Source of the DNA: an uncultured Eubacteriales bacterium
GTDB taxonomy: Bacteria; Bacillota_I; Bacilli_A; RF39; UBA660
NCBI GenBank assembly: GCA_900313815.1
Contig: OMST01000008.1
Span: 1-58,998, forward strand
Length of the DNA: 58,998 bases
Direction: 5' to 3'
Below the pieces are notes generated by a model. That model worked only from the letters and a program-made list of their open reading frames with translations, was not told the DNA's origin and made no database searches. A program made the position numbers and the translations under genes. This document shows, in pieces, positions 9,987-29,710 of the stretch; position 1 is the stretch's first letter; every line of letters begins with the position of its first letter.

Positions 9987-10089
9987 AATATCACCCTCAA
10001 ATTTTCCAATATTATACCACAACTATTTATATAAATCACTATTATTTTTTAAACGAAAATGTGTTTGTATTAAAAATCAAAAAAAAGAA

Positions 10090-10563
10090 TTAGCAAGCAG
10101 GATTATATTCAGATGTAGGTAAATCACAACAACCACATGCTTTTCCTTTATTATTAGATATACATTTAGTATTACCTCCTTGATTAGAAATAATACAACT
10201 ATTAACATATTCAGTATTACTATTACCAGGTGTCATATATGCTTTATATATTTTAACTAAATAACTACTAGGAAATTCATCACCGGTTACTGGATTAATT
10301 AATTTTTCTGAAAGATAATTTTCATTTTGAATTTCACCTAATCTAACATATATATCTCCACTAGTAGTAAAAGATGATAACCATGAATCGTTTAAATCTA
10401 CAAAAACTAATGCAGCTTGTTGTACTTCCATATATTTATTAACTAAATCCTCTTCATCGGCTTCATCATTACCAGATGTAAACATAGTTACAGAAGCAAC
10501 ACCTACTACAGCCATTATGGCAATTACAACTAATAGTTCTAATAAAGTAAAACCATTCTTCAT
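10090..10563 (-). CDS. Prepilin-type N-terminal cleavage/methylation domain protein (pilin-like A)
   Basis: 157 aa. MKNG|FTLLELLVVIAIMAVVG gives G-1, F+1, E+5 and a hydrophobic helix. C-terminal region carries 6 Cys. RBS GGTGAT. Confidence 0.8.
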   Translation of the reverse strand: MKNGFTLLELLVVIAIMAVVGVASVTMFTSGNDEADEEDLVNKYMEVQQAALVFVDLNDSWLSSFTTSGDIYVRLGEIQNENYLSEKLINPVTGDEFPSSYLVKIYKAYMTPGNSNTEYVNSCIISNQGGNTKCISNNKGKACGCCDLPTSEYNPAC

Positions 10564-10603
10564 ACTATCACCTAGTATAATTATACAATAAGAAAATATA
10601 TTT

Positions 10604-10786
10604 TTAAAGATTATTTTTAATATATTTAATAAAATTATTATAACCAGTAATATACCCTAAATCATATATTTTAGCCTTTAAATCATGATTTATATTATAT
10701 TTAAACAATTTGTACCTTCCACTCTCTAGTGCATCTAATATTCCTTTAAAATATGCTGTTTTATATATATTTATTAACTCTTCCAT
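10604..10786 (-). CDS. Hypothetical small protein
   Basis: 60-aa ORF with a strong GGAGG RBS, lying between the two pilin-like genes. No motif recognised. Confidence 0.4.
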   Translation of the reverse strand: MEELINIYKTAYFKGILDALESGRYKLFKYNINHDLKAKIYDLGYITGYNNFIKYIKNNL

Positions 10787-10831
10787 ATTACCTCCTAATT
10801 ATATAATTAGAAAGATGTATCTATTACACTA

Positions 10832-10860
10832 CAAAAAAAGAATACTTTTTAAAGTATTCT
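10832..10860 (-). terminator. Rho-independent terminator after pilin-like B
   Basis: agaatact (10839-10846) / agtattct (10853-10860) with a 6-nt loop. The A7 run on plus gives a U-run on the minus transcript. Confidence 0.6.
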
Positions 10861-12061
10861 AATTAGGCATTAAACTTGTTGGTATTTCTATAACTGGGCG
10901 AACTCCAATTACGTAATCATACCAATAGTTACCAGCATTATTAATAATACCACTATACACATTTCCAACATAATCACTTCTACCAGCATTACCAAGCCAA
11001 TAAGACCAATTGCCTTTTACTGTGCTTGATAGTGAACTTGCTTCTTCATATGTTAACAATCTCCCTGTTATATTGTTTGATGCTCCTAAACTCTTTAATC
11101 TATTTACATATCCTTCTACATAATATGCTATAGTATAGCCATTATCATAAGCACCTCTCCATGTACTAGAGGAATTAGTATATATTCCATAACTTGGCGC
11201 TATACTCGACATACTACTATTATATACATATGGATATGGTGATGTATATGCTCCTGTTTTACCTGCTGCATTTGCTGAGTTTGCATATTCACTCTTTAAA
11301 CCTGCTGTTCCTGAGCAGATATCTCCATTTGAAGTACCATTCCACACACAATTAGCATTATCCCAGTATCCCTTCCCTGAAAATGCTACAACTGCTGTTC
11401 TATCAGTAGAAGAGCCATATTCACCTTTTGCTCTTTCACTTTGTAAACCATATCCTGGATCACTTGAACTTAATGTCGTAAAAGTCCAAGTTCCATCTAT
11501 TCTTTCAAATACATCTCCTACTAATAAATTATATTTTGCTAGTAAAACTGTATTAGTTGAATTACTACTAACAACATAGAAGTGTTCACTTCCCATTGAT
11601 ACTTCATCTCCTGCAGTAATTTGTCCTGCATTTTGCCTATTTACATATTGTATTGTTAATGCATTTGCCGGCATACAGCTAGGAGTGTATCCACTTTCAG
11701 CATCTTCTATATCCCCACTCTTCGTTTCTTCAACACTGCCATTACTTTCATATTTATAACTTCCATTTGTTGCTTTAAAATCTATTACTTCTCCATCGGC
11801 ATTTACTGTAATACAATAGTCAAAGTCAGATTTGTTTGATACTCGTAAAGGATTAGAATTATTATCATATGTTGTTGGCTCTCCATCTAATACATACTGA
11901 TATCTTGCAGCTTTTATGATTGTATTAAGTTCATTATTAAATGTACTTTTTCTTGATTTGTTAAATGTTTTTAATACTGCAGGTACCGCCATTATTATAA
12001 GAATAGCTAATATAGCTATTACTGCTAATAACTCTATTAATGTAAATCCATTTCTTTTCAT
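10859..12061 (-). CDS. Prepilin-type N-terminal domain protein with a large C-terminal domain (pilin-like B)
   Basis: Start reassigned to MKRNG|FTLIELLAVIAILAILIIMAVP at 12061 (RBS GGTGAT); 400 aa. C-terminus ends WSYWLGNAG...VIGVRPVIEI. The first ~55 aa are paralogous to the 27398-29188 product. Confidence 0.8.
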   Translation of the reverse strand: MKRNGFTLIELLAVIAILAILIIMAVPAVLKTFNKSRKSTFNNELNTIIKAARYQYVLDGEPTTYDNNSNPLRVSNKSDFDYCITVNADGEVIDFKATNGSYKYESNGSVEETKSGDIEDAESGYTPSCMPANALTIQYVNRQNAGQITAGDEVSMGSEHFYVVSSNSTNTVLLAKYNLLVGDVFERIDGTWTFTTLSSSDPGYGLQSERAKGEYGSSTDRTAVVAFSGKGYWDNANCVWNGTSNGDICSGTAGLKSEYANSANAAGKTGAYTSPYPYVYNSSMSSIAPSYGIYTNSSSTWRGAYDNGYTIAYYVEGYVNRLKSLGASNNITGRLLTYEEASSLSSTVKGNWSYWLGNAGRSDYVGNVYSGIINNAGNYWYDYVIGVRPVIEIPTSLMPN

Positions 12062-13005: not shown

Positions 13006-16000
13006 TTATTTTTCTTCTTGAACTACTTCAGTAGATACTTCTTCTTTAGTAGCAGGAATTTCTTCCTCTTTATTAACTACAGGTTTTTCTTCTTCATCTT
13101 CAGAAATGATTGCTTCTATAGAAACTAAATCGCCAACTGGTAAAATTTCTTGAGGAAGTTCTTCTACTGTTTCATTAGTTACTTCTTCATTATTTTCAGT
13201 TTCTTCTATAATTTCTGTTTCAGAAGTAGTAGTTTCATTAACTACTTCTTCTGATTCAGTTGTTTTTTCTTTAGTTTCTTCAGTATTTTCTACTGGAGTT
13301 GTATTTTCATCTATAACATCTTCATTATTTACTACTTCATCAGTAGTATCTGTTTCAGTTGCATCTTCTTGTTCTATTTCAGGTAATACTTGTCCTTCAA
13401 CTAAACCTTCATATGAAGGCCCATATAGAGCTCCAAATTTTCTAGTTGCTGCTCTATTCATTGTACCTCTACCTGAGTTTCCATAGAATGATACATAAAT
13501 TGTATCAGCAGGATCAAACTTAGTAGCATCTATATCATACTTGCCATCTTCATCTTGAATTAAATATCTAGCAGTCATAGCAGCACTAATGCTTGTATAT
13601 TCAATTGTTCTTTCACTTGCTGTATTCCTGTTAACAATGATAGTTAACTTATGATCAGCATCAACTCTTAAATCTGTTCCTATTTCAGCAACACCTTCAT
13701 GAGTTTGTTTTGGATTAGGGTCTGGTGCAGCTTCAATACTAATTCTTTTGAATTCTGCTTCTAATCCTTCAGCACCAGTAGTAATTACTCTACTAGAATC
13801 TCCAGCAATTGAATTTAAGATAGCTTGAGCTCCTGATGCTCCATTACCTAATGCAACGGCATAAACAATTGTTTCTTTACCATCAGCATGTAATGCAGCA
13901 ATAGCAGCATTTCTTCTATCAACGTCATCTAAATCATCTGGTGCACCATCTGTTAAGAATACAACTACATTTTTATTATCTGGATTAGTTGATGCTAAAC
14001 CTGTTCCTTCAGTATATAGAACTTTATTAACTTCTTCAAGAGCAACATAGTATGGAGTACCACTTGGTTCTTCTATAGTAATTCCATTAACACTGTTAAT
14101 TAATGATTGTCTATTAGCATAACTTGTTAGTGTTGTACCAACTTGTTCAGCAAATGGTGTATTTACATCACAATATCTACCATATAATAAACTATAATGG
14201 CAACTACTTCCCTTAGATCCATATTTCAATACTACAACATTTGTATGAGTAGCATCAATATCACTGTTAGGGAATACATTCTTAATGAATGATTCTGTTG
14301 CTTCTTGAGCATATTTTAATAATGTTTTTCTATTTACTTTACCTAACATACTACCAGATGCATCAAGAGCTATAACAACGTTAGTTCCAACATATTGTTC
14401 TGTAATCTTATTGAAACTTAATGTCTTTTCAACTGTTATTGCATTTGTACTTTCTGTTGTAAATGAACCATCATTTACTTGAGATTCAACTTTACTATTA
14501 ATAGTATCACCAGCATTAGCTTTAACACGTACTACTAATGTGATAACCATTTCTTCATTAGGTTGCATATTATCAATTACAATTCCATTAGTACTTAATA
14601 TATCTAATGCATTGTAATCAGTTGATGTTTCACCATTTACTTTTACACTAGTTGAATCAATACTAATTAATGGATCTCCAGTAGTTGGATTTAATGCCTT
14701 AGCTAATTCTGAATCTTTTACAACTACCTTTCCACTTCCATCTCCAACATTCTTTGCAGTTACTGTAATAGTAATTACATCATTATATTCTGCTGGATCT
14801 CTTGGAGAATCTACATCAACGTTGATACTTAATTCAACGCTTGTAGTCTTATAGTAGATATTTAATACATTAGCACTAACATCTTCACCAATTGTAATAG
14901 ATGTTGGGTTAGTTTTTTCCATATCTACTTTCATATTTTCAGGTATAGTATAATCACTATAACTAATTACAGTTCCAAAATCAGCTTTTTGATCAGTAAT
15001 TGAATTATTTAATTCATCATCATAATAGAAGTTAACAGTATATGATAATGATTTCTTACTATACTCTACTTCTGTAGTTACATTTGCTGTAATAGTACCA
15101 CTTACTGTTTCTGGACTAGCATTATATCCAGTAATAGTTGGACTAGTTACATTATATGCACTACCTTTAACTAGTACTTCTGTATGAGCTGGAGCAGCTT
15201 CTGTTCCATCAGCATATTTATAAGTAATAGTTAGTGTATATTTATTAGTATAATTTGCAGTTAATGTATCACTCTTAGTTACAAAGTAATCATTTGTAGG
15301 ATTTACAATAGCATTACTTGTATCTTTCCATGAAACAAATTCACCAATTTCAGTTTCAGTAGTATAATTTCCGCCTGTTGGAATTACTACGTGAAGTCCA
15401 GCTTCATTCCAAATTGCATTATATGTTGCAGGTCCAGTTACTGTTACAGTACCAGCTTGAACTTTTGTACAAGTTTCAGGATCTGTACTATTTAAGCAAT
15501 ATCCTTGGAATTCTGCACTAGCAGGAATACTTCCTACTTGAGGATTTACTGCTGAATTCTCAGAGAATGTTAAAGTATAACTTCTTGATAATTCATTTAA
15601 TGTAATTGTGTCTCCATATGGATGATCTTCAATAATAGTTGTACATGATGTATTATCTGTATCTTCACATTGAGGATCAATTGTTATTGTATAAGTATCT
15701 CTCTTATAGAATAATTTTAATACTACATTTGAACCTGCTGTTAAAACTTCTGATTTATGAGTTCCTTCAACAGTTTCATCAACTGTGAATCCTTCATATT
15801 CTTTTGGAGTAGCTGTTACTGTTTGATCTGTAACTCCATCAGTTTTATTTTCAGTTTCAGTTGGTTCAGTTGGATAACTTCCATCTAAATTTTGTTGATA
15901 GTGTTCTACTGTATATGGCATTGTTGTTGAAGCAGTATATGTAACTGTTTCTGTTACATCTTCAAGACCCATTGTTCCACTTACAGTTGTTTTGCTTGCA

Positions 16001-18150
16001 CTATATCCAGCTACTGCTGGTGTAGTATAACTATATGATTGTTCATATCTATATGAATCAGGTCCTACAGTTACAGCTGGATGTTCATTATTTGCATATA
16101 TATAAGTTACTGTTACTGTGTGAGTATCTCTCTTATAATATACTTTTAATATTAAATTACCGTCTGCTGTTACTGTATCGCTTAAGTGATTTAATTGATT
16201 TTCTGCATCATAAGTGAATCCTTCATATTCTTTTGGAGTAGCTGTTACTGTTTGATCAGTTACACCATCAGTTTTATTTTCAGTTTCACTTGCTGTATCT
16301 GGATAACTTCCATCTACATTTTGTTTATAATGTTCAATCTTATATGAAATATCTGAAGAAGCAGTATATGTAACTGTTTCTGTTACATCTTCTGTTCCCA
16401 TTGTTCCACTTACAGTTGTTTTGTTTACACTATATCCAGCTACTTCTGGTGTAGTATAACTATATGATTCTTCATATCTATATGAATCTGGTCCTACTAC
16501 TGTATCTGGATGTTCATTATTTGCATAATGATATGTTACTGTTACAGTATGAACATCTCTCTTATAGTATACTTTTAATACTATATTACTTGTTCCATCT
16601 ATTGTATCAGTTAAGTGATTTAATTGATTTTCTGTATCTTGTGTGAATCCTGTATATTCTTTTGGAGTAGCTGTTACTGTTTGATCTGTAACTCCATCAG
16701 TTTTATTTTCAGTTTCACTTGCTGTATCTGGATATGTTCCATCTACATTTTGTTTATAATGTTCTACTGTATATGGCATATCAGTATTAGCAACATAAGT
16801 AACACTTAATGTTAACGCTTCAGCTGGCATTGTACCAGTTACAGTAGCATCTTGTGCATGATATCCAGCTTTATTGGCTTCTGGACTAGTTACATTATAA
16901 GTAGTTCCATTTGCTACTTCATCTGTATAAGTTGTAGCTGCTTCGCTACCATCTTCATAAACATAGTTAATAGTTAATGTATATTTTCTAGCAGTTCCAT
17001 TATCATATTTAGCAACTAATTCTTTATCACCTGTTAAAGTAATCTTAGAATTTGCTTCTACTTGTTTACTTCCATCTAACCAATATAAGAAAGTAAAGTC
17101 AGTAGTTGTTGTTTGATAATTGTGTCCTTCTGCTACATCAACTGTTAATGCTGTTTCATTCCATTGTGCATAGTAAGTTACATTGTCTTTAACTTCTACT
17201 ACTGTTCCTGCAGTTATTACATCACTACAAGTTCTAGCATTAATGCAATATCCTTGGAATTCTGCACTAGCTTCTTGAGGTTGATTTGGTTTTTCAACTT
17301 CTTCTGCTTCTTTATAACTTAAAGTGTATTTTCTCTCAAGTCCTTCTAATGTGATTTCATCTCCATATTCATGTTTTTCTTCTTTAATGTCATCACACTT
17401 TTCGCCTGTACAATTTGGATCGATTGTTACTGTATAATTACTTACAGCATAATATACCTTTAATACTAGGCTTCCATCTGAAGCAATAGCACCTGATAAA
17501 ACATTTTGTGTATTTGTTTCATCATATGTGTATCCTTCAATAGTAATTATTTCTGCACTTGCATTTGAGTTAACTGTTCCAGTTAAATTTTTTGTTGTAT
17601 ATAATGTAGCAACATCATCTTTAACTGTATAGTATTCTACTTTATATGCTGCTGCATTAGCATTATATATAGCATCTACTCTTACATCTGCAGAAACGTT
17701 TGTATACTTTCCACTCCATCTTACAAAAGTATACCCTTCATGTGTTGGTGCAGTTGGTGCACTTGCATCTTCACCACCACGTACCGTTTGAGTATCAATT
17801 ACTCTTCTTGCGATGGTATCATAGAATCTAACTGTATAATAATTAACAGCACATCCAGAATAAACAGTTAAATTTGTAGTGATATTAGTAAAATCATCGA
17901 TTCTAACATCATTTTCTGTATACCATCCTGAAAATTTACAATTATCATGAACAGGTGATTCAGGTACTTCAGCATTTTTACCAACTTCAATAGTTTGTGT
18001 ACTGATTACTTGCTTAGTGTACCCATCTATAAACTTTACTTCTCTTGTATTAACTCTTCTAACACCACCAGGTTGGGATGCGAAAGTCATCATGAAAAAC
18101 AAAAGTATTATAAATGCGATAAATATAAATAATCTTTTTTTGTTAAACAT
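13006..18150 (-). CDS. Giant secreted repeat protein with vWA domain (adhesin-like)
   Basis: Start reassigned to MFNKKRLFIFIAFIILLFFMMTFASQP at 18150 (RBS GGGAG, signal peptide); 1714 aa. Contains GYTFxxW-type Listeria-Bacteroides-like repeats, three 143-aa tandem repeats and a vWA MIDAS motif ALDASGS (14351-14370) with FLTDGAPDD. The tail is acidic and E/T-rich. No LPXTG or C-terminal TM. Confidence 0.8.
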   Translation of the reverse strand: MFNKKRLFIFIAFIILLFFMMTFASQPGGVRRVNTREVKFIDGYTKQVISTQTIEVGKNAEVPESPVHDNCKFSGWYTENDVRIDDFTNITTNLTVYSGCAVNYYTVRFYDTIARRVIDTQTVRGGEDASAPTAPTHEGYTFVRWSGKYTNVSADVRVDAIYNANAAAYKVEYYTVKDDVATLYTTKNLTGTVNSNASAEIITIEGYTYDETNTQNVLSGAIASDGSLVLKVYYAVSNYTVTIDPNCTGEKCDDIKEEKHEYGDEITLEGLERKYTLSYKEAEEVEKPNQPQEASAEFQGYCINARTCSDVITAGTVVEVKDNVTYYAQWNETALTVDVAEGHNYQTTTTDFTFLYWLDGSKQVEANSKITLTGDKELVAKYDNGTARKYTLTINYVYEDGSEAATTYTDEVANGTTYNVTSPEANKAGYHAQDATVTGTMPAEALTLSVTYVANTDMPYTVEHYKQNVDGTYPDTASETENKTDGVTDQTVTATPKEYTGFTQDTENQLNHLTDTIDGTSNIVLKVYYKRDVHTVTVTYHYANNEHPDTVVGPDSYRYEESYSYTTPEVAGYSVNKTTVSGTMGTEDVTETVTYTASSDISYKIEHYKQNVDGSYPDTASETENKTDGVTDQTVTATPKEYEGFTYDAENQLNHLSDTVTADGNLILKVYYKRDTHTVTVTYIYANNEHPAVTVGPDSYRYEQSYSYTTPAVAGYSASKTTVSGTMGLEDVTETVTYTASTTMPYTVEHYQQNLDGSYPTEPTETENKTDGVTDQTVTATPKEYEGFTVDETVEGTHKSEVLTAGSNVVLKLFYKRDTYTITIDPQCEDTDNTSCTTIIEDHPYGDTITLNELSRSYTLTFSENSAVNPQVGSIPASAEFQGYCLNSTDPETCTKVQAGTVTVTGPATYNAIWNEAGLHVVIPTGGNYTTETEIGEFVSWKDTSNAIVNPTNDYFVTKSDTLTANYTNKYTLTITYKYADGTEAAPAHTEVLVKGSAYNVTSPTITGYNASPETVSGTITANVTTEVEYSKKSLSYTVNFYYDDELNNSITDQKADFGTVISYSDYTIPENMKVDMEKTNPTSITIGEDVSANVLNIYYKTTSVELSINVDVDSPRDPAEYNDVITITVTAKNVGDGSGKVVVKDSELAKALNPTTGDPLISIDSTSVKVNGETSTDYNALDILSTNGIVIDNMQPNEEMVITLVVRVKANAGDTINSKVESQVNDGSFTTESTNAITVEKTLSFNKITEQYVGTNVVIALDASGSMLGKVNRKTLLKYAQEATESFIKNVFPNSDIDATHTNVVVLKYGSKGSSCHYSLLYGRYCDVNTPFAEQVGTTLTSYANRQSLINSVNGITIEEPSGTPYYVALEEVNKVLYTEGTGLASTNPDNKNVVVFLTDGAPDDLDDVDRRNAAIAALHADGKETIVYAVALGNGASGAQAILNSIAGDSSRVITTGAEGLEAEFKRISIEAAPDPNPKQTHEGVAEIGTDLRVDADHKLTIIVNRNTASERTIEYTSISAAMTARYLIQDEDGKYDIDATKFDPADTIYVSFYGNSGRGTMNRAATRKFGALYGPSYEGLVEGQVLPEIEQEDATETDTTDEVVNNEDVIDENTTPVENTEETKEKTTESEEVVNETTTSETEIIEETENNEEVTNETVEELPQEILPVGDLVSIEAIISEDEEEKPVVNKEEEIPATKEEVSTEVVQEEK
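15700..16795. repeat. Tandem 429-bp (143-aa) repeats inside the adhesin gene, about 2.6 copies
   Basis: cttttggagtagctgttactgtttgatc recurs at 15801, 16230 and 16659. The shadow ORFs 16035-16217 and 16464-16646 are near-identical paralogues, also 429 nt apart. Confidence 0.9.
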
Positions 18151-18205
18151 ATTTCTACAACTCCCTTCATACGAAAAATTGCCCACCTCGCAATTTACAA
18201 CTCGT

Positions 18206-18234
18206 ATTATATTATAATTTATTAAAAAAAGCAA
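18206..18234 (-). promoter_or_regulatory. Candidate sigma-A promoter of the adhesin gene
   Basis: Minus strand reads TTGCTT-17 nt-TATAAT about 55 nt upstream of the ATG. Such matches are common in DNA this AT-rich. Confidence 0.3.
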
Positions 18235-18265: not shown

Positions 18266-18820
18266 CTATCTTAATTTTTTAAATTCTGATAGTGGCCAAA
18301 CTTTAAATATTAGCTTTCCATCTATCTGTTTTTTATCTATCAAACCTATCTCAGGATCCCTACTATCTTGTGAACCAGGTCTATTATCACCGAGAACTAG
18401 GTATTTACCTTCTGGTATTTTGTTATCTGGGCATTTTTCTTTGTCACATATGTCTACAAACATAAAATTATTTGTTTCTTTTCCATCAACAAATGTTTCA
18501 TCATATGCTTCTCCATTAATATATAAATAACCATTTAGATAATCAATAGTTTCACCAGGTAATCCTATAACTCGTTTAACATATCTTTTTTTCTCAGCAT
18601 CTTTAAATGTTATAATATCATTTCTTTTAGGTGAAGATATTAAATATGCGAATTTTAATGACACAGCCATATTTCCATCAGAAAGAGTTGGACTCATTGA
18701 ATTACCTGCAACAGGAACAACTGCCACTACAAATGTAAAAATAAATGCAATAACGGCAAATATTACTATATATGCAAATGTATCTTTTATGAATTCGGTT
18801 ACTTCTCTAAAATCTGGCAT
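18266..18820 (-). CDS. lepB: Signal peptidase I
   Basis: 184 aa. N-terminal TM, catalytic Ser box GNSMSPTL, KRVIGLPGE box and GDNRPGSQDSR box. Confidence 0.9.
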   Translation of the reverse strand: MPDFREVTEFIKDTFAYIVIFAVIAFIFTFVVAVVPVAGNSMSPTLSDGNMAVSLKFAYLISSPKRNDIITFKDAEKKRYVKRVIGLPGETIDYLNGYLYINGEAYDETFVDGKETNNFMFVDICDKEKCPDNKIPEGKYLVLGDNRPGSQDSRDPEIGLIDKKQIDGKLIFKVWPLSEFKKLR

Positions 18821-18868: not shown

Positions 18869-20344
18869 TTACAAGACTATCGCTATTAAGTTATTGCTTC
18901 CTTTGTTAACCATTTTAGTTATTGTTTGAGACAATTTATATTTAGCAGAATCAGGTAATAGAGATAATTTACCTTGTATACCTTCTTGTACTATTTCATT
19001 TAAACTTCTGCCAAATATTTCACTTTCCCATATTTTTTCAGGATTATCTTTGTCTTTCATTATGTATTCTATTAATTCCTTACTTTGTAATTCACTTCCT
19101 ATAATAGGCTCAAAACTACTTTCAACATCCACTTTAATCATATGTATACTAGATGCTTTAGCTTTTAATTTAATTCCAAATCTATTACCTGCTTTAATAA
19201 TTTCAGGTTTATCTAACTTCATATCTGTTATTCTTGGTAATACAATACCATATCCAGTTTGATAAACTTGTTTTAAAGCCCCTTTTATATTCTCATATTC
19301 TCCTCTACCTTCACTAACATTTAAGAATATTTTTAATAAATCGCCTTTTGAATTAACTGATTCACCTACTACTTCTTTTAATAAATCATTAAATAATTTA
19401 TCTTCGGCATCTAATGTAACTGTTACTTCTGAATTATCAGTATCTAATGAAGAAATATATGCTTTAGATATTACATTAGAGTCTTCTAAATTTAAATTAA
19501 TATTTTCTACATCTCTTAATTTATCCACATTAACAATAGAAGATTTCATTTTATTAAAGAATTCAACTTTAATTGGATGATCATTATTAAGTACCCCTAC
19601 CCAATCTGGTATCTGAAATTCTATATGATCAATTGGAAATTCATATAATGCTTCTTTTAATATATTAGTCATATCTATATCTGTCATATCTTCTACACTT
19701 ATAGGTAATACAGGTACATTATATTTTTCTTTAAGACCATTTGCTATTTTCAATGTATCCTCTTGTTTAGGATGAACACTATTTAATATAACAATAAATG
19801 GTTTATTAATATTCTTAAGTTCATTAATAACTTTATCTTCTGCGGATATATAATTATTTCTAGATAAATCTCCTATACTCCCATCAGTAGTAACTACTAT
19901 TCCAATAGTGGCATGATCTTTAATAACTTTTTCAGTTCCAATCTCTGCTGCTTCTACAAAAGGTAATTCTTCTGTAAACCATGGCGTTTTAACCATTCTA
20001 GGATTTCCAAGTTCATCTTGATAACCCAACGCTTCAGGTGTAATAAAACCAACACAATCTACTAATTTAATATTTGTTTTTAAACCATTAATATTTATAT
20101 TTGCTCCACTACTAGGCACAAATTTAGGTTCAATAGTCATAATAGTTTTTCCAGCAGCAGATTGAGGTATCTCATCAATACATCTTTTCTTTTCATTTTC
20201 GTCTTCAATATATGGTAAAACTAATGTCTCAATACATTTTTTAATAAATGTACTTTTACCAGTTCTAACTGCACCTACTACGCCTAAATATATTTCTCCA
20301 CCAGATTTTTTATCCAAGCTCTTAATTATTTCATTTTTATCCAT
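18869..20344 (-). CDS. spoIVA: Stage IV sporulation protein A
   Basis: 491 aa. N-terminal Walker A GVVGAVRTGKSTFIKK. Length and overall pattern are typical of SpoIVA. Confidence 0.85.
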   Translation of the reverse strand: MDKNEIIKSLDKKSGGEIYLGVVGAVRTGKSTFIKKCIETLVLPYIEDENEKKRCIDEIPQSAAGKTIMTIEPKFVPSSGANININGLKTNIKLVDCVGFITPEALGYQDELGNPRMVKTPWFTEELPFVEAAEIGTEKVIKDHATIGIVVTTDGSIGDLSRNNYISAEDKVINELKNINKPFIVILNSVHPKQEDTLKIANGLKEKYNVPVLPISVEDMTDIDMTNILKEALYEFPIDHIEFQIPDWVGVLNNDHPIKVEFFNKMKSSIVNVDKLRDVENINLNLEDSNVISKAYISSLDTDNSEVTVTLDAEDKLFNDLLKEVVGESVNSKGDLLKIFLNVSEGRGEYENIKGALKQVYQTGYGIVLPRITDMKLDKPEIIKAGNRFGIKLKAKASSIHMIKVDVESSFEPIIGSELQSKELIEYIMKDKDNPEKIWESEIFGRSLNEIVQEGIQGKLSLLPDSAKYKLSQTITKMVNKGSNNLIAIVL

Positions 20345-24445: not shown

Positions 24446-27328
24446 TTAATTACTTAATAAAATCATATTATATATTATTAATTGATACTCATTATTTCTT
24501 CTTTCAACTTTTCCTTGTATTTTATATACATTATTTTTCTTTATTTCAACAAGTTTAGCATATGTATCAGGAAATATTATTCCTTCAATGCTATCATATT
24601 CATCACTTAATCTTATAAATGACATTTTCTTTAAATTCTTTGTTTTAATATTATTAATACTCTCTACATATAACACTGTTGTTATAACTTTATTAAAATA
24701 TTTTTTATATTCATTTAAATTAATAGAATTATTTCTGTCAAATTTAGTAACTGGATGAAATGATAAATAAAATCCATAATTAGCTATCTCTTTATCTATT
24801 ATTTCTATATCAGTAAAATCATCAACATGTTCAAATACAGGTTTATCTTCAAGTACTGTATTTAAATCTTTACATAAAGTAACATAATTAATTATTTCAT
24901 CTATATTTAATATTAATTCTTTTTTATTAACATTAAATATATCAAACGCTCCACACTCTATTAAAGATATTATTATTCTCTTATTAATATTTTTAGAATA
25001 GCATCTAATCATAAAGTCATAAAATGATTGAAATTCACCTTTTTCTCTTTCTTTAACTATTTCATCTGAAACAGTAAAAGCTATAGATTTAATAATACTA
25101 AAAGGTAATACTAATTCATTATCTTTAATAATAAATTCATGAGAAGAAAAATTTATATCTATTTTATGAAACTTAATACCAAGTATTTTAGACTCATCTA
25201 AATATTCTTTTAGTGTTTCACTACTTTTATTCATATTAAGTAAATTTCTCATAAAATAGATTGTATAATTAATCTTTAAATATGCCATCTGAAATGCTAA
25301 TACTGAATATACTACTGAATGGGATTTATTAAATCCATATGAAGAGAATTTAATTATTAAATTATATAATTCTTCACCTATTTCTTTAGTATATCCTTTA
25401 TCTATAACACCACCAATAAACCTATCTTTATTCTTAAGAATGACATCTTCTTTTTTCTTAGACATTGCTCTTCTTATAATATCTGCTTCAGAATAACTAT
25501 ATCCACCTATTTCTCTTAATATTTCAAGTACTTGTTCTTGATATATTATTATTCCATATGTACTTTTTAAAATAGGTTCTAATTCTTTAACTAAATATGT
25601 TATTTTTTCTTTACCCTTTTTACGTTTAATGTATGTTGGTATCATTTCACGAGGACCTGGTCTATATAAAGCAATCGCATCTATTAATGTATTAAAAGAA
25701 TCACATTCCAAATCTTTTAAGAATGCTCTCATACCGCTACTTTCAAATTGAAATATTCCTGTAGTATATGCATTCTTAAATAAATTTAATGTTTTCTTGT
25801 CATTTAAATTAATAGAATTAATATCTAAATCTATACCATGTGCTTTAATATCATTTAATATATTTGATATTGTATTAAGATTTTTAATAGATAAGAAATC
25901 CATCTTTAATAATCCTAATGATTCAATATATTCCATAGAATATCCAGTTAATATAACATCATTACTTTTATATAAAGGCATAAAATTATAAAGCTCTATA
26001 TCACTTATAACAACACCTGCAGCATGTATGCTAGTATTCTTTTTAAGACCACATAATTTGTTACATATCTTAATTAAATTATCTATTTCTATACTGTTTT
26101 TAACTACTTTATTATATTCTTTATTTGATTTAAGAGCATCAAATGTTTTCTCATCACTTATAGTCTTACATATATTATCTATTAATATAGGATTAATATT
26201 TAATACTTTACCAACATCATGTATAACTTGTTTAGGTAAAAGTGTATTAAAAGATACTATTCTACTAGTATTTAAATGACCATATTTATTACATACATAT
26301 TCTATAACATCATCACGTCTTAAAGAATCAAAATCTATATCTATATCTGGCATAGTAATTCTATCTGGATTTAAAAATCTTTCAAATATTAAATTATATT
26401 TTAATGGATCTATATTAATAATACCAAGAGCATAGTTAACGAGGGAAGCTGCTCCACTACCTCTTCCAGGCCCGACTAAAATATTATGCTTTTTAGCAAA
26501 TAAAACAAAATCATAAACTATTAAGAAATAATCTACATAATTCATCTTTTCTATTACAGATAATTCATATATAATTCTGTTTTTATATTCTAGAGGTACA
26601 TTTCCATTAAGTCTTTTATCAAGGCCTTTTTTAACTAATGCTTTTAAATAATTTAAAGAATTATCTTTATATTTAGGTATATGTGTCTTTATACTAGGTA
26701 ATTCTATATTTATATCATTACAAAACTTAGAAGTAGTTTCACTATCATAATCATTTATATTTAGATTGAAATAACTATCTCTAACATCTATTTTATCTTC
26801 TATAGTTTTAGATAATTCAATATATTTTAAATATCTAAAATAATCTTTATCAGTAGAATCAAAATATCTTATCAATGGTAAATATATTATATTATTAGTA
26901 ACAACAAGTGCTTCTGTTTTTTCCCTATTATTACTATACATTACATATACTTCATCAAATATTAATTTAAAGTTATCATAATCAGTAGAAGAACATACAC
27001 ACTTAATATTAGGATACTTTATATCTTTAAATGTTAATGTTTCTAAATTACGCTTAGTAACTATTTTAAATAATGAAACAAGTCCATCATAGTTTTTAGC
27101 ATATAATATAAATGAAGTGTTTTCTATATTTAGTTCAACACCAATTATAGGTTTAATATTATTAGAGATACACTTATTAATAAATTCCATTGTTCCAAAC
27201 ATAGTTGAATCACTAATGCCTAGACAATTAATATCATTTTTTAATGCAAATGAAATCAAATCATCTATTTTAATTAGACTATTCATTAAATCATATTCTG
27301 TTTTAACATTTAATGGAATATATTTCAT
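24446..27328 (-). CDS. dnaE: DNA polymerase III alpha subunit (DnaE type)
   Basis: 960 aa from MKYIPLNVKTEYDL at 27328 (RBS GGAGA). Pol III alpha core patterns GPGRGSGAASLVNYALGI, PDIDIDF and GLLKMDFL. The N-terminal PHP His residues are replaced (IPLNVKTEY). Confidence 0.9.
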   Translation of the reverse strand: MKYIPLNVKTEYDLMNSLIKIDDLISFALKNDINCLGISDSTMFGTMEFINKCISNNIKPIIGVELNIENTSFILYAKNYDGLVSLFKIVTKRNLETLTFKDIKYPNIKCVCSSTDYDNFKLIFDEVYVMYSNNREKTEALVVTNNIIYLPLIRYFDSTDKDYFRYLKYIELSKTIEDKIDVRDSYFNLNINDYDSETTSKFCNDINIELPSIKTHIPKYKDNSLNYLKALVKKGLDKRLNGNVPLEYKNRIIYELSVIEKMNYVDYFLIVYDFVLFAKKHNILVGPGRGSGAASLVNYALGIINIDPLKYNLIFERFLNPDRITMPDIDIDFDSLRRDDVIEYVCNKYGHLNTSRIVSFNTLLPKQVIHDVGKVLNINPILIDNICKTISDEKTFDALKSNKEYNKVVKNSIEIDNLIKICNKLCGLKKNTSIHAAGVVISDIELYNFMPLYKSNDVILTGYSMEYIESLGLLKMDFLSIKNLNTISNILNDIKAHGIDLDINSINLNDKKTLNLFKNAYTTGIFQFESSGMRAFLKDLECDSFNTLIDAIALYRPGPREMIPTYIKRKKGKEKITYLVKELEPILKSTYGIIIYQEQVLEILREIGGYSYSEADIIRRAMSKKKEDVILKNKDRFIGGVIDKGYTKEIGEELYNLIIKFSSYGFNKSHSVVYSVLAFQMAYLKINYTIYFMRNLLNMNKSSETLKEYLDESKILGIKFHKIDINFSSHEFIIKDNELVLPFSIIKSIAFTVSDEIVKEREKGEFQSFYDFMIRCYSKNINKRIIISLIECGAFDIFNVNKKELILNIDEIINYVTLCKDLNTVLEDKPVFEHVDDFTDIEIIDKEIANYGFYLSFHPVTKFDRNNSINLNEYKKYFNKVITTVLYVESINNIKTKNLKKMSFIRLSDEYDSIEGIIFPDTYAKLVEIKKNNVYKIQGKVERRNNEYQLIIYNMILLSN

Positions 27329-27361
27329 ACTATCTCCTTTATTACATTTTAACATTTTTTT

Positions 27362-27398
27362 AATAAAATAAAAATATCACTTTTTAATAAGTGATATT
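27362..27398 (-). terminator. Rho-independent terminator after pilin-like C
   Basis: Perfect 10-bp inverted repeat aatatcactt (27373-27382) / aagtgatatt (27389-27398). The minus-strand tail is U-rich. Confidence 0.6.
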
Positions 27399-29188
27399 TA
27401 ATTAGTATGTGGTTTTATAATAACAATTCCAGAACCTCCTGATCCTCCAGCTCCACAAATACCACTTGGGCAAAATCCGCCTGCTCCGCCTCCGCCGCCA
27501 GAACCTGTTGATGCTGTTCCATGCCCATTATTGCCAACAGAATTTGCATATCCAGTAAGTCCTCTGCTTACAGCGCCTGCACCACCTCCGCCTGCGCCTC
27601 CTACACTCGCAGTAGCAGAACCATTTGACCATGAATGAGAGCCTCCGCCACCACCAGCGCCAAATATTCCAAATCCGGATATAGTAGTGCCTCGAATCCC
27701 ATTTTCTCCCCAATAATGATTTCCATTATATGTGGATGTTGCTGTGCCACCGTTTCCACCTCTAGCACCATTAGTTAGTGTCCCACTTACTGTTCCGCTC
27801 TTAGTTGATCCGCCTGCTCCACTATTAGTACCATCGCTAAATTTGCCACCAGAACCTCCACTTACGGAAGCTATAGTAGTTGTCCCTAGTTTAATTATAG
27901 TGTTTCCACCATCAACTCCATATTCGGCAGCAGCAGAGCTACCTCCGTTTCCGCCTCTTCCAATATAAATAGTATATGTTCCTTGAGCAGTGTAATTACT
28001 TATAAAGAGTATGGCTCCTCCACCGCCGCCTCCGCCACCATTGTAAGAACCTCCAATGGCAGAATTGATCATGCCTGACGAAGCACCACCTCCGCCACCT
28101 CCGACCATATAAATATCGACGTTAGTGGCACTGGTAAATGTAATTGTTCCACTGCTAGTTATTCTCTTTGATGCGTTATTATAATTTCCATAATTAGTTA
28201 AACTTGATGTGCATTGAGAAGATGAGGATGAGCCTGTTGAACTGCTCGTACCATCAGGGCATTGAGTTCTTCCCGAATTAGAAGCCGTACTTACCACATC
28301 ATGAGCGTATCTTTTACCCGCCGGGCAATAGAACCCATTTGGACAAGTTTGGCAAGTATTGCCACTTTGTGGTAAATATGTGCCAGCAGTACAATTAACA
28401 TAACACTCCGTGACTGCTTTTGCATTTGAATCACTATTCATGGAAGTTGGGCAATTGCTAAGTCCATGATTTTGCGTATCACTGTAATATGCCTTACCAC
28501 CAGTACAATACTTTCCCGCTGGACAAACACTACATAATGTTGTTCCAGCTGCTAAATAGTTCCCAGCAGTACAATTAATATAGCACGCAGTTTTATCAGA
28601 TGAATTAGCCGAGCTTGTCATGCCTGCTGGACAATTTTCTTTTCCGCTATCAGTGCTAGCATTAAAAGCATATGTTCCACCTGGACAATACGAACCTGCT
28701 AGGCAAGGTGCACATTCTCTAGTTCCTGCTGCTAAATATTTTTTAGCTTCGCATGTGTATTCATCTACACCATTTGCAGTTACATATATAGTATCACTTG
28801 CTGATAAATTACTTATAGTTTCAATATCACTAGAAACTATTGTATCAATTGTTCCTGTTTTTCTGCATTGATAAGTACCATTTTCTGCTAGAAGTTTAAC
28901 AACCTTACCATTACCATCCATCTCTACATAATAATGAAGGTCTGAACTTCCAGATAAATTTAATTTACTGGTTGAGCCTTCAACATTAGACCACGATTTA
29001 GGAACTCCACCGTCAAGTAAATATTGTTGTCTTGCTGTTCTTATTATTGTATTTAATTCATTATTAAAACTATCCATCCTTGCTTGTTCAAACATTCTTA
29101 GTACTGCTGGTAATGCCATAATAACTAGAATAGCTAATATTGCTATTACAGCTAGTAACTCTACTAATGTAAATCCTTTTCTATTCAT
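27398..29188 (-). CDS. Prepilin-type N-terminal domain fused to a Cys-rich repeat module and a glycine-rich domain (pilin-like C)
   Basis: 596 aa starting MNRKG|FTLVELLAVIAILAILVIMALP. Residues 145-326 hold three roughly 58-aa repeats of C..C.AG.YC.GG type. Residues ~345-596 carry poly-Gly blocks (VGGGGGGAS, NGGGGGGGGAILF, GRGGNGG, GGAGGGGAG). Flanked by terminators on both sides. Confidence 0.85.
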   Translation of the reverse strand: MNRKGFTLVELLAVIAILAILVIMALPAVLRMFEQARMDSFNNELNTIIRTARQQYLLDGGVPKSWSNVEGSTSKLNLSGSSDLHYYVEMDGNGKVVKLLAENGTYQCRKTGTIDTIVSSDIETISNLSASDTIYVTANGVDEYTCEAKKYLAAGTRECAPCLAGSYCPGGTYAFNASTDSGKENCPAGMTSSANSSDKTACYINCTAGNYLAAGTTLCSVCPAGKYCTGGKAYYSDTQNHGLSNCPTSMNSDSNAKAVTECYVNCTAGTYLPQSGNTCQTCPNGFYCPAGKRYAHDVVSTASNSGRTQCPDGTSSSTGSSSSSQCTSSLTNYGNYNNASKRITSSGTITFTSATNVDIYMVGGGGGGASSGMINSAIGGSYNGGGGGGGGAILFISNYTAQGTYTIYIGRGGNGGSSAAAEYGVDGGNTIIKLGTTTIASVSGGSGGKFSDGTNSGAGGSTKSGTVSGTLTNGARGGNGGTATSTYNGNHYWGENGIRGTTISGFGIFGAGGGGGSHSWSNGSATASVGGAGGGGAGAVSRGLTGYANSVGNNGHGTASTGSGGGGGAGGFCPSGICGAGGSGGSGIVIIKPHTN

Positions 29189-29233
29189 CTATTATCACCT
29201 ATATTAATTATAACACTATAAGATTTATATTCA

Positions 29234-29259
29234 ATAAAAAAGTAGTGATATACACTACT
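29234..29259 (-). terminator. Rho-independent terminator after divIVA
   Basis: agtagtg (29241-29247) / cactact (29253-29259) with a 5-nt loop, followed by U5. Overlaps the divIVA stop. Confidence 0.5.
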
Positions 29260-29710
29260 AATCATATTTATTATCTATTTCTTCAAAATTAACTCTATCC
29301 ATTTCATCAATAACTTCAAGTTGATTTTGAATTATTTGTCTTAATCTTCTTTTTAGGACATTGGTATTTCTTTTTAATTGGTCTGCATGATTTTGTGCTC
29401 TTTCAGCTTTTAATAATGCATCATTTATAATTCTACTAGCATTACGTCTAGCTTCATTAATTAATTGTTCTGCTTCTGTACGTGCATTCTTTTTAATTTG
29501 ATCTCCCGCACTTTCAGCAGTATATATTGCTCTATTCATCGTGTCTTCTATTTTTTGATAATAAGCAATTTGTTCAGTTAATTTTTTATTTTCTTCAGCA
29601 GTCTTTTGACTTCGTCTTAGTAACAATTCATAATTCTTAATTACATCATCTAAGAATTTTTGAACTTGATACTTATCATAACCGCGGAAGACAGTATCGA
29701 ACTTGTTCAT
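29258..29710 (-). CDS. divIVA: DivIVA-family cell division protein
   Basis: 150 aa. N-terminus FDTVFRGYDKYQVQKFLDDV followed by coiled coil. sepF lies upstream, as in the ylm-divIVA cluster. Confidence 0.85.
   Translation of the reverse strand: MNKFDTVFRGYDKYQVQKFLDDVIKNYELLLRRSQKTAEENKKLTEQIAYYQKIEDTMNRAIYTAESAGDQIKKNARTEAEQLINEARRNASRIINDALLKAERAQNHADQLKRNTNVLKRRLRQIIQNQLEVIDEMDRVNFEEIDNKYD

Follow-up and report, generated by a model that had tools for sequence, protein, structure and literature searches.

A 596-aa open reading frame (ORF) with a prepilin-like start, cysteine-rich repeats and a glycine-rich end lies between divIVA (29258..29710) and dnaE (24446..27355) in a 58,998-nt stretch of contig OMST01000008.1 (GCA_900313815.1, from an uncultured Eubacteriales bacterium), which we call the window. 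What does such a protein do, and how did its gene come to stand beside dnaE? We think that the gene probably encodes a three-part modular type IV pilin that a type IV filament displays and whose working end is a phage-type binding domain. Its most likely function is that of a filament-displayed adhesin. The upstream neighbor was assigned through same-species loci, where the identical DivIVA protein has a Pfam DivIVA match. The gene comprises the following parts:

27398..29188, minus strand: coding sequence of the modular prepilin, 596 aa, stop codon included, with the start MNRKGFTLVELLAVIAILAILVIMALP (ORF and domain matches)
29174..29188, minus strand: leader peptide MNRKG (aa 1-5), with the predicted prepilin-peptidase cut after Gly5 (N_methyl and TIGR02532 matches, residue conservation)
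28769..29173, minus strand: pilin module (aa 6-140), an alpha-1 helix with Glu+5 and Pro+22 followed by a four-stranded sheet (AlphaFold2 (AF2) model, head alignment)
28211..28753, minus strand: stalk of three six-Cys repeats (aa 146-326), ephrin-receptor-like or TNFR-like (internal repeat alignment, homologues)
27413..28159, minus strand: C-terminal glycine-rich domain (aa 344-592), Pfam Gly_rich_2, with a predicted polyglycine-rich fold of phage tail tips and fibres (Pfam, AF2, Foldseek)

Pilin head, cysteine stalk and glycine-rich domain

The N-terminus reads MNRKG and then, past the predicted cut, FTLVELLAVIAILAILVIMALP. It carries Gly-1, Phe+1, Glu+5 and Pro+22 (numbered from the predicted mature Phe) and has the composition of a class III signal: a short basic leader, Gly, Phe+1, about 21 hydrophobic residues and Glu+5. 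The Pfam N_methyl model scored 30.6 bits (cutoff 21.2) and TIGR02532 scored 27.6 bits (cutoff 16.3). An earlier, sequence-only reading of this locus had proposed a prepilin-type protein fused to a cargo, and we confirmed this, with N_methyl, TIGR02532 and Gly_rich_2 all above their cutoffs. An alignment of 32 diverse heads showed invariance at G5, F6, T7, L8, E10-L18, P27, F41, Y86 and G94, and G5, F6, T7 and E10 were nearly invariant in a set of 117 heads. Invariant G5, F6, T7, E10 and P27 are not expected of a plain membrane anchor. The AF2 model of the head (predicted local distance difference test (pLDDT) score 85.4) contains a 51-residue helix (8-58) and strands at 64-67, 85-90, 96-102 and 106-114. 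This modeled topology, a long helix with a small sheet, is the one expected of a type IV pilin.

The three repeats that follow the head are 59-67 aa each and contain six cysteines spaced C-x12-C-x2-C-x5-C-x17-C-x15-C. Their pairwise alignments score 12-17 standard deviations above shuffled sequences. The sequence-only reading had compared them to GCC2/GCC3 or ephrin-receptor-like repeats; GCC2_GCC3 is the earlier Pfam name of Ephrin_rec_like (PF07699). The kind of repeat was borne out by homologues that pass the Ephrin_rec_like cutoff (P0143 with E 5.6e-13; P0229 and P0022 with E of about 1e-5), but the 596-aa protein itself is sub-threshold (11.1 bits, cutoff 23.1). Its repeat would then be a divergent relative of Ephrin_rec_like, on transitive evidence only.

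We searched for relatives of the C-terminal part with exhaustive HMMER over 1.84 billion representatives (E<=1e-3). This search superseded a word-index search with the C-terminal 451 aa, in which poly-Gly words crowded the candidates and only 5 matches were returned. The whole C-terminal query matched 466 proteins. Nearly all of the 150 matches listed hit the Cys repeats, and the proteins among them contain up to 28 repeat stretches and reach ~4,000 aa. We read the N-termini of 16 repeat homologues: most have ordinary Sec signals and two have prepilin motifs (P0132, 3792 aa; P0135, 1180 aa). These two are otherwise unrelated giants in which an N-terminus of the prepilin type precedes as many as 28 units of this Cys repeat. 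Their architecture indicates that the pairing of a pilin with a Cys stalk arose more than once. In two independent assemblies of the species (loci L147 and L148), the contigs stop at codon 324, the junction of stalk and glycine-rich domain, and this shared break suggests strain variation or assembly difficulty.

The last 256 aa of the protein contain 83 Gly (32%), including five runs of 4-8 Gly. Gly_rich_2 (PF21722) matched with 45.2 bits against a cutoff of 24.3 (E 1.5e-11, profile positions 1-224 of 226). In the full-length Gly_rich_2 homologues that we read, whose carriers are Flg_new, Big_2 or pilin proteins, the domain closes the protein with GGSGIVII(R/K), and the conserved C-terminal GGSGIVII motif is also found here. 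The AF2 model of the domain (pLDDT 69.6, predicted template modeling score 0.76) was compared with known structures using Foldseek. In the PDB, it matched the tail tip of mycobacteriophage Bxb1 (9d93_Qa; E 4.6e-10, template modeling (TM) scores 0.58/0.67, 29% identity) and the cyanophage Pam3 fibre (7ypx; E 2e-6). In BFVD, 260 viral models matched (E<=1e-3), most of them minor tail proteins or glycine-rich proteins. The suggestion that the domain is of the phage-fibre kind was thus supported by structure comparison, while a search of PDB sequences with the domain profile gave no match. Polyglycine-rich domains of phage minor tail proteins have been linked to host recognition (PMC13252515).

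The head family and the pilin slot beside dnaE

A protein search gave 309 matches; in almost all of them, the shared stretch was confined to the first 20-28% of the query (55-70% identity). Behind this shared head, the matches carry different C-terminal domains (LRR_5, DUF285, Flg_new, DUF6273, Glug, SpaA, Hint and Gly_rich_2), and several homologues pair the same head type with Gly_rich_2. The first ~60 aa of the head are nearly invariant across hundreds of relatives. A scan of species-representative genomes identified 478 genomic relatives in metagenome-assembled genomes (MAGs) of uncultured Bacilli from rumen, rabbit and human gut. Head-family loci number 13 in one MAG (RUG12335) and 12 in another, with many copies cut at contig ends. 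In RUG12335, the copies at loci L004, L005, L007-L010, L013 and L016 stop at contig ends right after the head. Such ends fit assembly breaks on a repeated 5' sequence, so the copy numbers counted in MAGs are probably underestimates. Paralogues within one genome are 81-91% identical over the first 90 nt past the cleavage site.

The window itself contains two further prepilin genes:

10859..12061, minus strand: paralogue, a 400-aa modular prepilin of the same head family with a different cargo, ending ...GVRPVIEIPTS (ORF reading)
10090..10563, minus strand: prepilin of ordinary size (157 aa) whose head is divergent and whose C-terminus is rich in Cys (ORF reading)

The 400-aa paralogue is 81% identical to the 596-aa gene over the first 90 nt from the GFT codon. 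The helix of the 157-aa prepilin reads GFTLLELLVVIAIMAVVG, and the C-terminus of this protein contains five Cys and a GCC motif. In relatives, the small pilins that accompany the assembly ATPase, such as that at 9354..9875 of locus L116, likewise have a Cys-rich C-terminus. The 157-aa prepilin could be the counterpart of this ATPase-partner pilin, with similarity confined to the N-terminus; we found no positional orthologues of the pilins flanking the L116 ATPase among the protein matches.

More copies lie beyond the window. RuvB, the phospholipase-C-like protein (PLPC) and DivIVA of the window are identical to those of a 246-kb MAG scaffold, ena:ERZ922478:scaffold_0, which also carries the 596-aa gene at the corresponding position, differing in 3 nt (locus L144), and we therefore treat the two as the same species. 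At least seven prepilin genes lie in ~120 kb of this scaffold. They include the three already described, a 520-aa DUF285 fusion just past the right end of the window, a 558-aa LRR_5 fusion, a 341-aa prepilin and a 346-aa prepilin between polC and polA. The sequence-only reading had called the gene stand-alone. It instead has two more prepilin genes in its window, at least seven prepilins on the same-species scaffold when it is counted, and a large dispersed family of paralogues. The cargo set of that family comprises LRR_5/BspA, DUF285, DUF6273-like, Flg_new, dockerin-like and Gly_rich_2 domains, and the copies stand singly among housekeeping genes. The 596-aa gene is one allele of a lineage-wide system that combines a nearly invariant pilin head with interchangeable cargo.

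We compared the gene's position with that of its relatives. A head-family pilin gene lies next to dnaE in 12 related loci: immediately upstream in 10, ~0.9 kb upstream in L042 and downstream in L028. Where DnaE is ~50% identical to that of the window, the adjoining gene codes for an ordinary 150-180-aa pilin; L036 has four pilins in tandem, followed by dnaE, comEA and comEC. At 66-69% DnaE identity, modular pilins fill the upstream position instead: L062 has one of 602 aa with DUF285-type repeats, and L042 has two, of 396 and 440 aa, that include a dockerin-like segment. The two L042 genes (9519..10709 and 10718..12040) are in tandem, and the segment (GDVDRNGKV...DVNGDNKVD) resembles, by eye only, a dockerin-type calcium-binding repeat pair. 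This comparison of 12 loci identifies the 596-aa gene as the positional counterpart of a conventional pilin that gained cargo, and the insertion between divIVA and dnaE that the sequence-only reading implied gives way to a conserved arrangement. Head-family pilins repeatedly adjoin replication genes: besides dnaE, one lies in the polC/MBL-polA gap of L150 (ERZ922478 scaffold_0, 38.5-59.5 kb) and of L028.

The gene and its flanks diverge at different rates. Of the changes that separate the head and Cys region from that of the L147 allele, 14 are synonymous and 7 non-synonymous, a pattern that fits purifying selection on that region. In one relative, divIVA has 14 silent differences in 453 nt and DivIVA is unchanged, yet the pilin protein is only 67% identical. 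In that pair, alpha-1 is 92% identical, the globular head 65% and the first Cys repeat 50%, and this drop toward the cargo indicates that the surface-exposed parts diverge or are replaced much faster than the flanking genes. This copy thus appears to occupy an old pilin slot upstream of dnaE and to change much faster than its neighbors.

The composition of the gene raises the question of whether it is a recent foreign insertion, that is, a phage tail-fibre gene or prophage remnant whose hydrophobic N-terminus arose by chance. The G+C content (GC) of the gene is 0.41 (0.22-0.29 in neighboring genes), its C-terminal fold is common to phage tail proteins, and the cargo has a GC at third codon positions (GC3) of 0.22 against a window mean of 0.12. 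It also has its own promoter-like site and flanking hairpins:

29241..29259, minus strand: intrinsic-terminator-like hairpin and T-run ending divIVA, upstream of the gene (terminator scan; 7-bp stem with 3 G-C pairs)
29207..29234, minus strand: sigma-70-type promoter-like site, TTGAAT and TATAAT separated by 16 nt, with an extended -10 (TG) (promoter scan, 10 of 12 matches; consensus match only)
29195..29200, minus strand: ribosome-binding site AGGTGA, 6 nt 5' of the ATG (read from the sequence)
27365..27397, minus strand: weak AT-rich hairpin and T-run from the stop codon of the gene to dnaE (sequence reading; not called by the terminator scan)

Of the two terminators that had been said to bracket the gene, the upstream one was called by the scan. 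The downstream hairpin (27397..27374; 7-bp AT-rich stem with 2 G-C pairs, 10-nt loop) fell below the scan criteria. The GC counts given earlier for single lines of sequence were reproduced exactly (48.3%, 58.3% and 20.0%), but their use as a sign of foreign origin is not supported by the codon positions. GC at position 2 is 0.59 in this gene and 0.24-0.34 in its neighbors, and the excess mostly reflects amino-acid composition (codon positions 1-2; Gly, Ala, Ser, Thr and Cys). At 0.198, the GC3 of the gene is only mildly above the window mean (0.119 +/- 0.030); it ranks second among 49 ORFs, with mraZ and one further ORF close to it. Within the gene, GC3 is 0.117 in the head and 0.22 in both cargo parts. 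The native-like value of the head marks it as belonging to this genome. The cargo part may be somewhat younger or under different constraint, though this signal is weak. The window has no phage or integrase genes near the gene, several samples of the species retain it, and Gly_rich_2 cargo also occurs on cellular Flg_new and Big_2 surface proteins. Together with the conserved pilin beside dnaE, these findings make a recent foreign insertion very improbable. Horizontal transfer of the whole gene was rejected in view of the conserved slot and the native-like GC3 of the head; it is possible that the cargo cassette alone came from a somewhat GC-richer donor. An Rfam search of the window gave no match. 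Tandem Repeats Finder reported two 9-nt micro-repeats only, with nothing to indicate phase variation by slipped strands; at the DNA level, the three Cys repeats are diverged.

Other genes of the window also concern the cell surface and the biology of the organism. A 1742-aa surface protein (13006..18234, minus strand) has Flg_new, MucBP and VWA_2 matches, an acidic repeat-rich C-terminus and no obvious C-terminal sorting motif. Its gene lies directly downstream of 18266..18820 (minus strand; signal peptidase I-like by eye) and upstream of the two other prepilin genes. The gene at 18869..20344 (minus strand) is SpoIVA-like, with a Pfam SpoIVA_ATPase match on the identical gene in L144, and SpoIIIAH, GerE and Germane genes lie just outside the window (L141). 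From these genes, this low-GC organism (26.6%) appears to be a spore-former, though some related MAGs are labelled 'Tenericutes'.

Filament machinery and the proposed mode of display

We looked for the machinery that would assemble such a pilin. The window has no type IV filament machinery genes among its ORFs. A T2SSF platform gene (626 aa; Pfam E 1.3e-30) is present on the same-species scaffold, ~98 kb from the modular prepilin gene. Its product is 48% identical to the T2SSF protein of L132, where the gene immediately after T2SSF encodes an A24 prepilin peptidase (A24_N_bact E 1e-29; Peptidase_A24 E 7e-14). The same-species locus L150 stops inside T2SSF, before the next gene. Motif scans for the ATPase and the A24 peptidase over 1.29 Mb of head-family loci found a single ATPase, a GspE/PilB-type enzyme encoded in L071, 7 kb from the pilin-dnaE pair. 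Conservation of the assembly ATPase across more than 120 protein clusters of the related clade is 84-99%. The ATPase gene stands beside an opposite-strand small pilin gene in nearly all of 54 metagenome loci, from a scan that returned mainly the more distant UMGS1658-like clade. L116 and L110 have the ATPase on the same contig as head-family modular pilins. Judged by gene content, the lineage has a complete filament machine, and this species at least the platform. The sequence-only reading had named a genome lacking such machinery as evidence against a filament; the platform was found on the same-species scaffold and the ATPase and peptidase in relatives, which answers this point in part and in favor of a filament, but neither of the latter was seen in the window or in ~120 kb of this species' scaffold.

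Two of these loci have further features. On the low-GC contig of L132 (2310..3184), all that is present of the ATPase is an N-terminal ORF of 85 aa and a second ORF of 143 aa that has no Pfam match; intact T2SSF and A24 genes come after them. Either a pseudogene or an artefact of assembly or frameshift may account for this split ATPase. In L071, a 183-aa protein with a CdiA_C toxin domain (7545..8096; E 3.7e-14) is encoded between the ATPase region and the pilin-dnaE pair. A 'conserved pilin' described from TANB77 (PMC11680825) was set aside because it belongs to a Tad-type cluster and is unrelated.

In the reading we favor, a prepilin peptidase would cut the protein after Gly5, and the hydrophobic alpha-1 helix would insert the mature protein into a type IV filament made by a PilB/PilC-type machine. 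Its bulk would make it a low-abundance subunit, most likely at or near the filament tip. The phage-like domain would stand off from the filament on the rigid Cys stalk and so could bind a ligand on the surface of another cell or of the host, probably a glycan or an envelope component. The cargo had been proposed to be either displayed on, or secreted through, a type IV filament. We keep the first of these and drop the second, because nothing supports release.

Several observations weigh against this model. It is hard to see how one filament would accommodate so many bulky subunits, given at least seven prepilin genes in 120 kb. Neither the window nor ~120 kb of the same-species scaffold yielded a prepilin peptidase or an assembly ATPase, and in L002 the tig-adjacent slot, which holds the ATPase in the related clade, has a TMEM43-like gene instead. 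The 18 stalk cysteines imply disulfides, yet the organism is presumably an anaerobe. Foldseek aligned the head model with no solved pilin in the PDB below E = 1. We treated this result as a weakness of the method on a long helix with a small sheet and not as evidence against a pilin fold. PDB sequence matches of the protein are all to pilin N-termini and cover the N-terminal helix only, so the fold was assigned from topology and sequence motifs. The model of the glycine-rich domain is only moderate and was built from an alignment of 11 sequences. Finally, the cleavage, methylation, polymerisation, tip location and ligand of the protein are all predictions from sequence and models.

Some of these points would be explained if the class III signal served for export and anchoring only. 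The protein would then be cut by the peptidase but left unpolymerised, alpha-1 would stay in the membrane (alone or in short stubs), and the stalk would push the binding domain through the wall, as in the display on an archaeal bindosome. Many bulky paralogues (at least 13 loci in RUG12335, in addition to the prepilins of the same-species scaffold) are hard to fit on tips, the genes are scattered, monocistronic and far from machinery, and no ATPase was found in ~120 kb of this species' scaffold. A 190-aa stalk also suits the spanning of a Gram-positive wall. Against an anchor-only role, Glu+5 and Pro+22, which serve filament packing and not membrane anchoring, are invariant, and the first ~60 aa nearly so, across hundreds of paralogues. 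The species has kept a T2SSF platform gene, the related clade conserves its assembly ATPase, and ordinary 150-180-aa pilins of the same head family, some in tandem (L036, L048), imply a real filament. The invariant residues and the retained machinery argue for true assembly, and we consider an anchor-only role, the main rival of our reading, possible but doubtful.

We also considered whether the protein is a minor pilin of a competence (Com-type) DNA-uptake pilus, with a cargo that captures DNA or donor cells. The four small pilins of L036 adjoin dnaE and the comEA and comEC genes of that relative, and phage-type receptor-binding domains bind bacterial envelopes (PMC13252515). Partial NCBIfam matches to competence pilins were found on the N-terminus, but they lie far under the cutoffs and cover only the shared N-terminal helix (ComGE 28.2/49, ComGC 24.7/75, ComGD 24.0/70). 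Type II pseudopilin models (GspG/H/I/J) also failed to reach their NCBIfam cutoffs (GspG 26.1 against 88.85, the remaining ones lower). The ATPase and platform of relatives score best with the NCBIfam GspE/PilB and GspF/PilC models, above ComGA and ComGB, and the loci examined contain no comG-like operon. The cargos of the family (BspA-LRR, DUF285, dockerin-like) point to general adhesion. A role in competence is therefore unlikely.

Display by a filament leads to a broader and more speculative proposal, which we put forward tentatively. Small-genome, wall-bearing gut Bacilli might use one type IV filament machine as a general display platform for fast-diversifying, interchangeable adhesin cargos, including phage-type receptor-binding domains. 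The near-invariant head, with its first 90 nt 81-91% identical between paralogues, could act as a recombination handle for swapping cargo cassettes. Such a platform, if true, would take the role that sortase-anchored adhesins have elsewhere, and a phage-like tip could grasp other bacteria for co-aggregation or for the capture of DNA donors.

Comparison with known systems

The predicted fold of the C-terminal domain matches the polyglycine-rich domains of phage proteins (9d93, 7ypx and many minor tail proteins, with Salmonella phage S16 gp38 as the literature precedent). In both settings, the domain lies at the distal end of a fibre-like carrier. The carriers differ, a pilin here and a tail in phages, and the likeness comes without a sequence-level PDB match. 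A fold common to a putative cellular adhesin and phage tail tips suggests bacterial or host surface glycans as candidate ligands. The TG domain of ALK/LTK (TNF-like plus glycine-rich) shows a distant fold likeness (Foldseek E ~1e-3, probability 0.84-0.96), but with TM scores of only 0.22-0.29 and 13-16% identity, it is a remote structural relative and not a functional analogue. The stalk shares its six-Cys unit (C..YL....C..C..G.YC.GG) with Ephrin_rec_like/TNFR-like bacterial proteins, and homologous repeats form stalks, with up to 28 copies, in large surface proteins. Those proteins differ in having mostly Sec signals, and among the 16 N-termini read only P0132 and P0135 also have a prepilin motif.

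Among pilins, CofB of enterotoxigenic Escherichia coli and TcpB of V. cholerae, both large type IVb minor pilins, join a pilin module to extra beta-rich domains and have a proposed role in tip binding (PMC8179133), as we propose for the 596-aa protein. They belong to another pilin class, their extra domains are unrelated, and their genes are single-copy and part of the pilus operon. The archaeal bindosome consists of sugar-binding proteins with class III signals. It resembles the head family in carrying many different cargos behind a common pilin-type signal, but it is archaeal, uses different machinery (Bas), and our analysis showed no homology of cargo or head.

We take IPR026906 to be the LRR_5/BspA-type entry. 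It is included in the survey of Raynaud et al. (2021, PNAS), which reports more than 1,200 modular pilins with 264 architectures (PMC8179133). The 596-aa protein fits the definition used there, with N_methyl and Gly_rich_2 on one polypeptide. The architecture was therefore not as novel as the sequence-only reading, which did not recognise it as described, had supposed: module-grafted pilins are established, and several homologues have the same head and Gly_rich_2. The grafting of modules onto pilins is a published principle, and our results open no new category. Our literature search did not find a Cys stalk with Gly_rich_2 described as pilin cargo, and a search for PF21722, Gly_rich_2 and IPR049304 found no paper.

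The closest prototypes are PilB (vWA module) and PilC (lectin module) of Streptococcus sanguinis, which are characterised modular pilins (PMC8179133; Shahin et al. 2023, PMC9934059). They share with the 596-aa protein a class III signal, a small pilin, an adhesion-type C-terminal module and a monoderm host. The differences lie in the three-repeat Cys stalk and Gly_rich_2 cargo, with a 190-aa structured stalk in place of a short loop; in a monocistronic gene beside dnaE and not in a pil operon; and in a dispersed family with many paralogues per genome and a near-invariant head. What is new here is thus the combination of Cys stalk and Gly_rich_2 cargo, the scale and dispersal of the paralogue family, and the conserved slot adjacent to dnaE. 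If our model is true, a phage-type receptor-binding domain on a rigid Cys stalk joins the module repertoire of type IV pili. The finding would also point to a group of uncultured gut and rumen Bacilli with many more modular pilins than the one or two per genome studied so far, and these would form a natural system for asking how many bulky subunits a filament carries and how cargo is exchanged.

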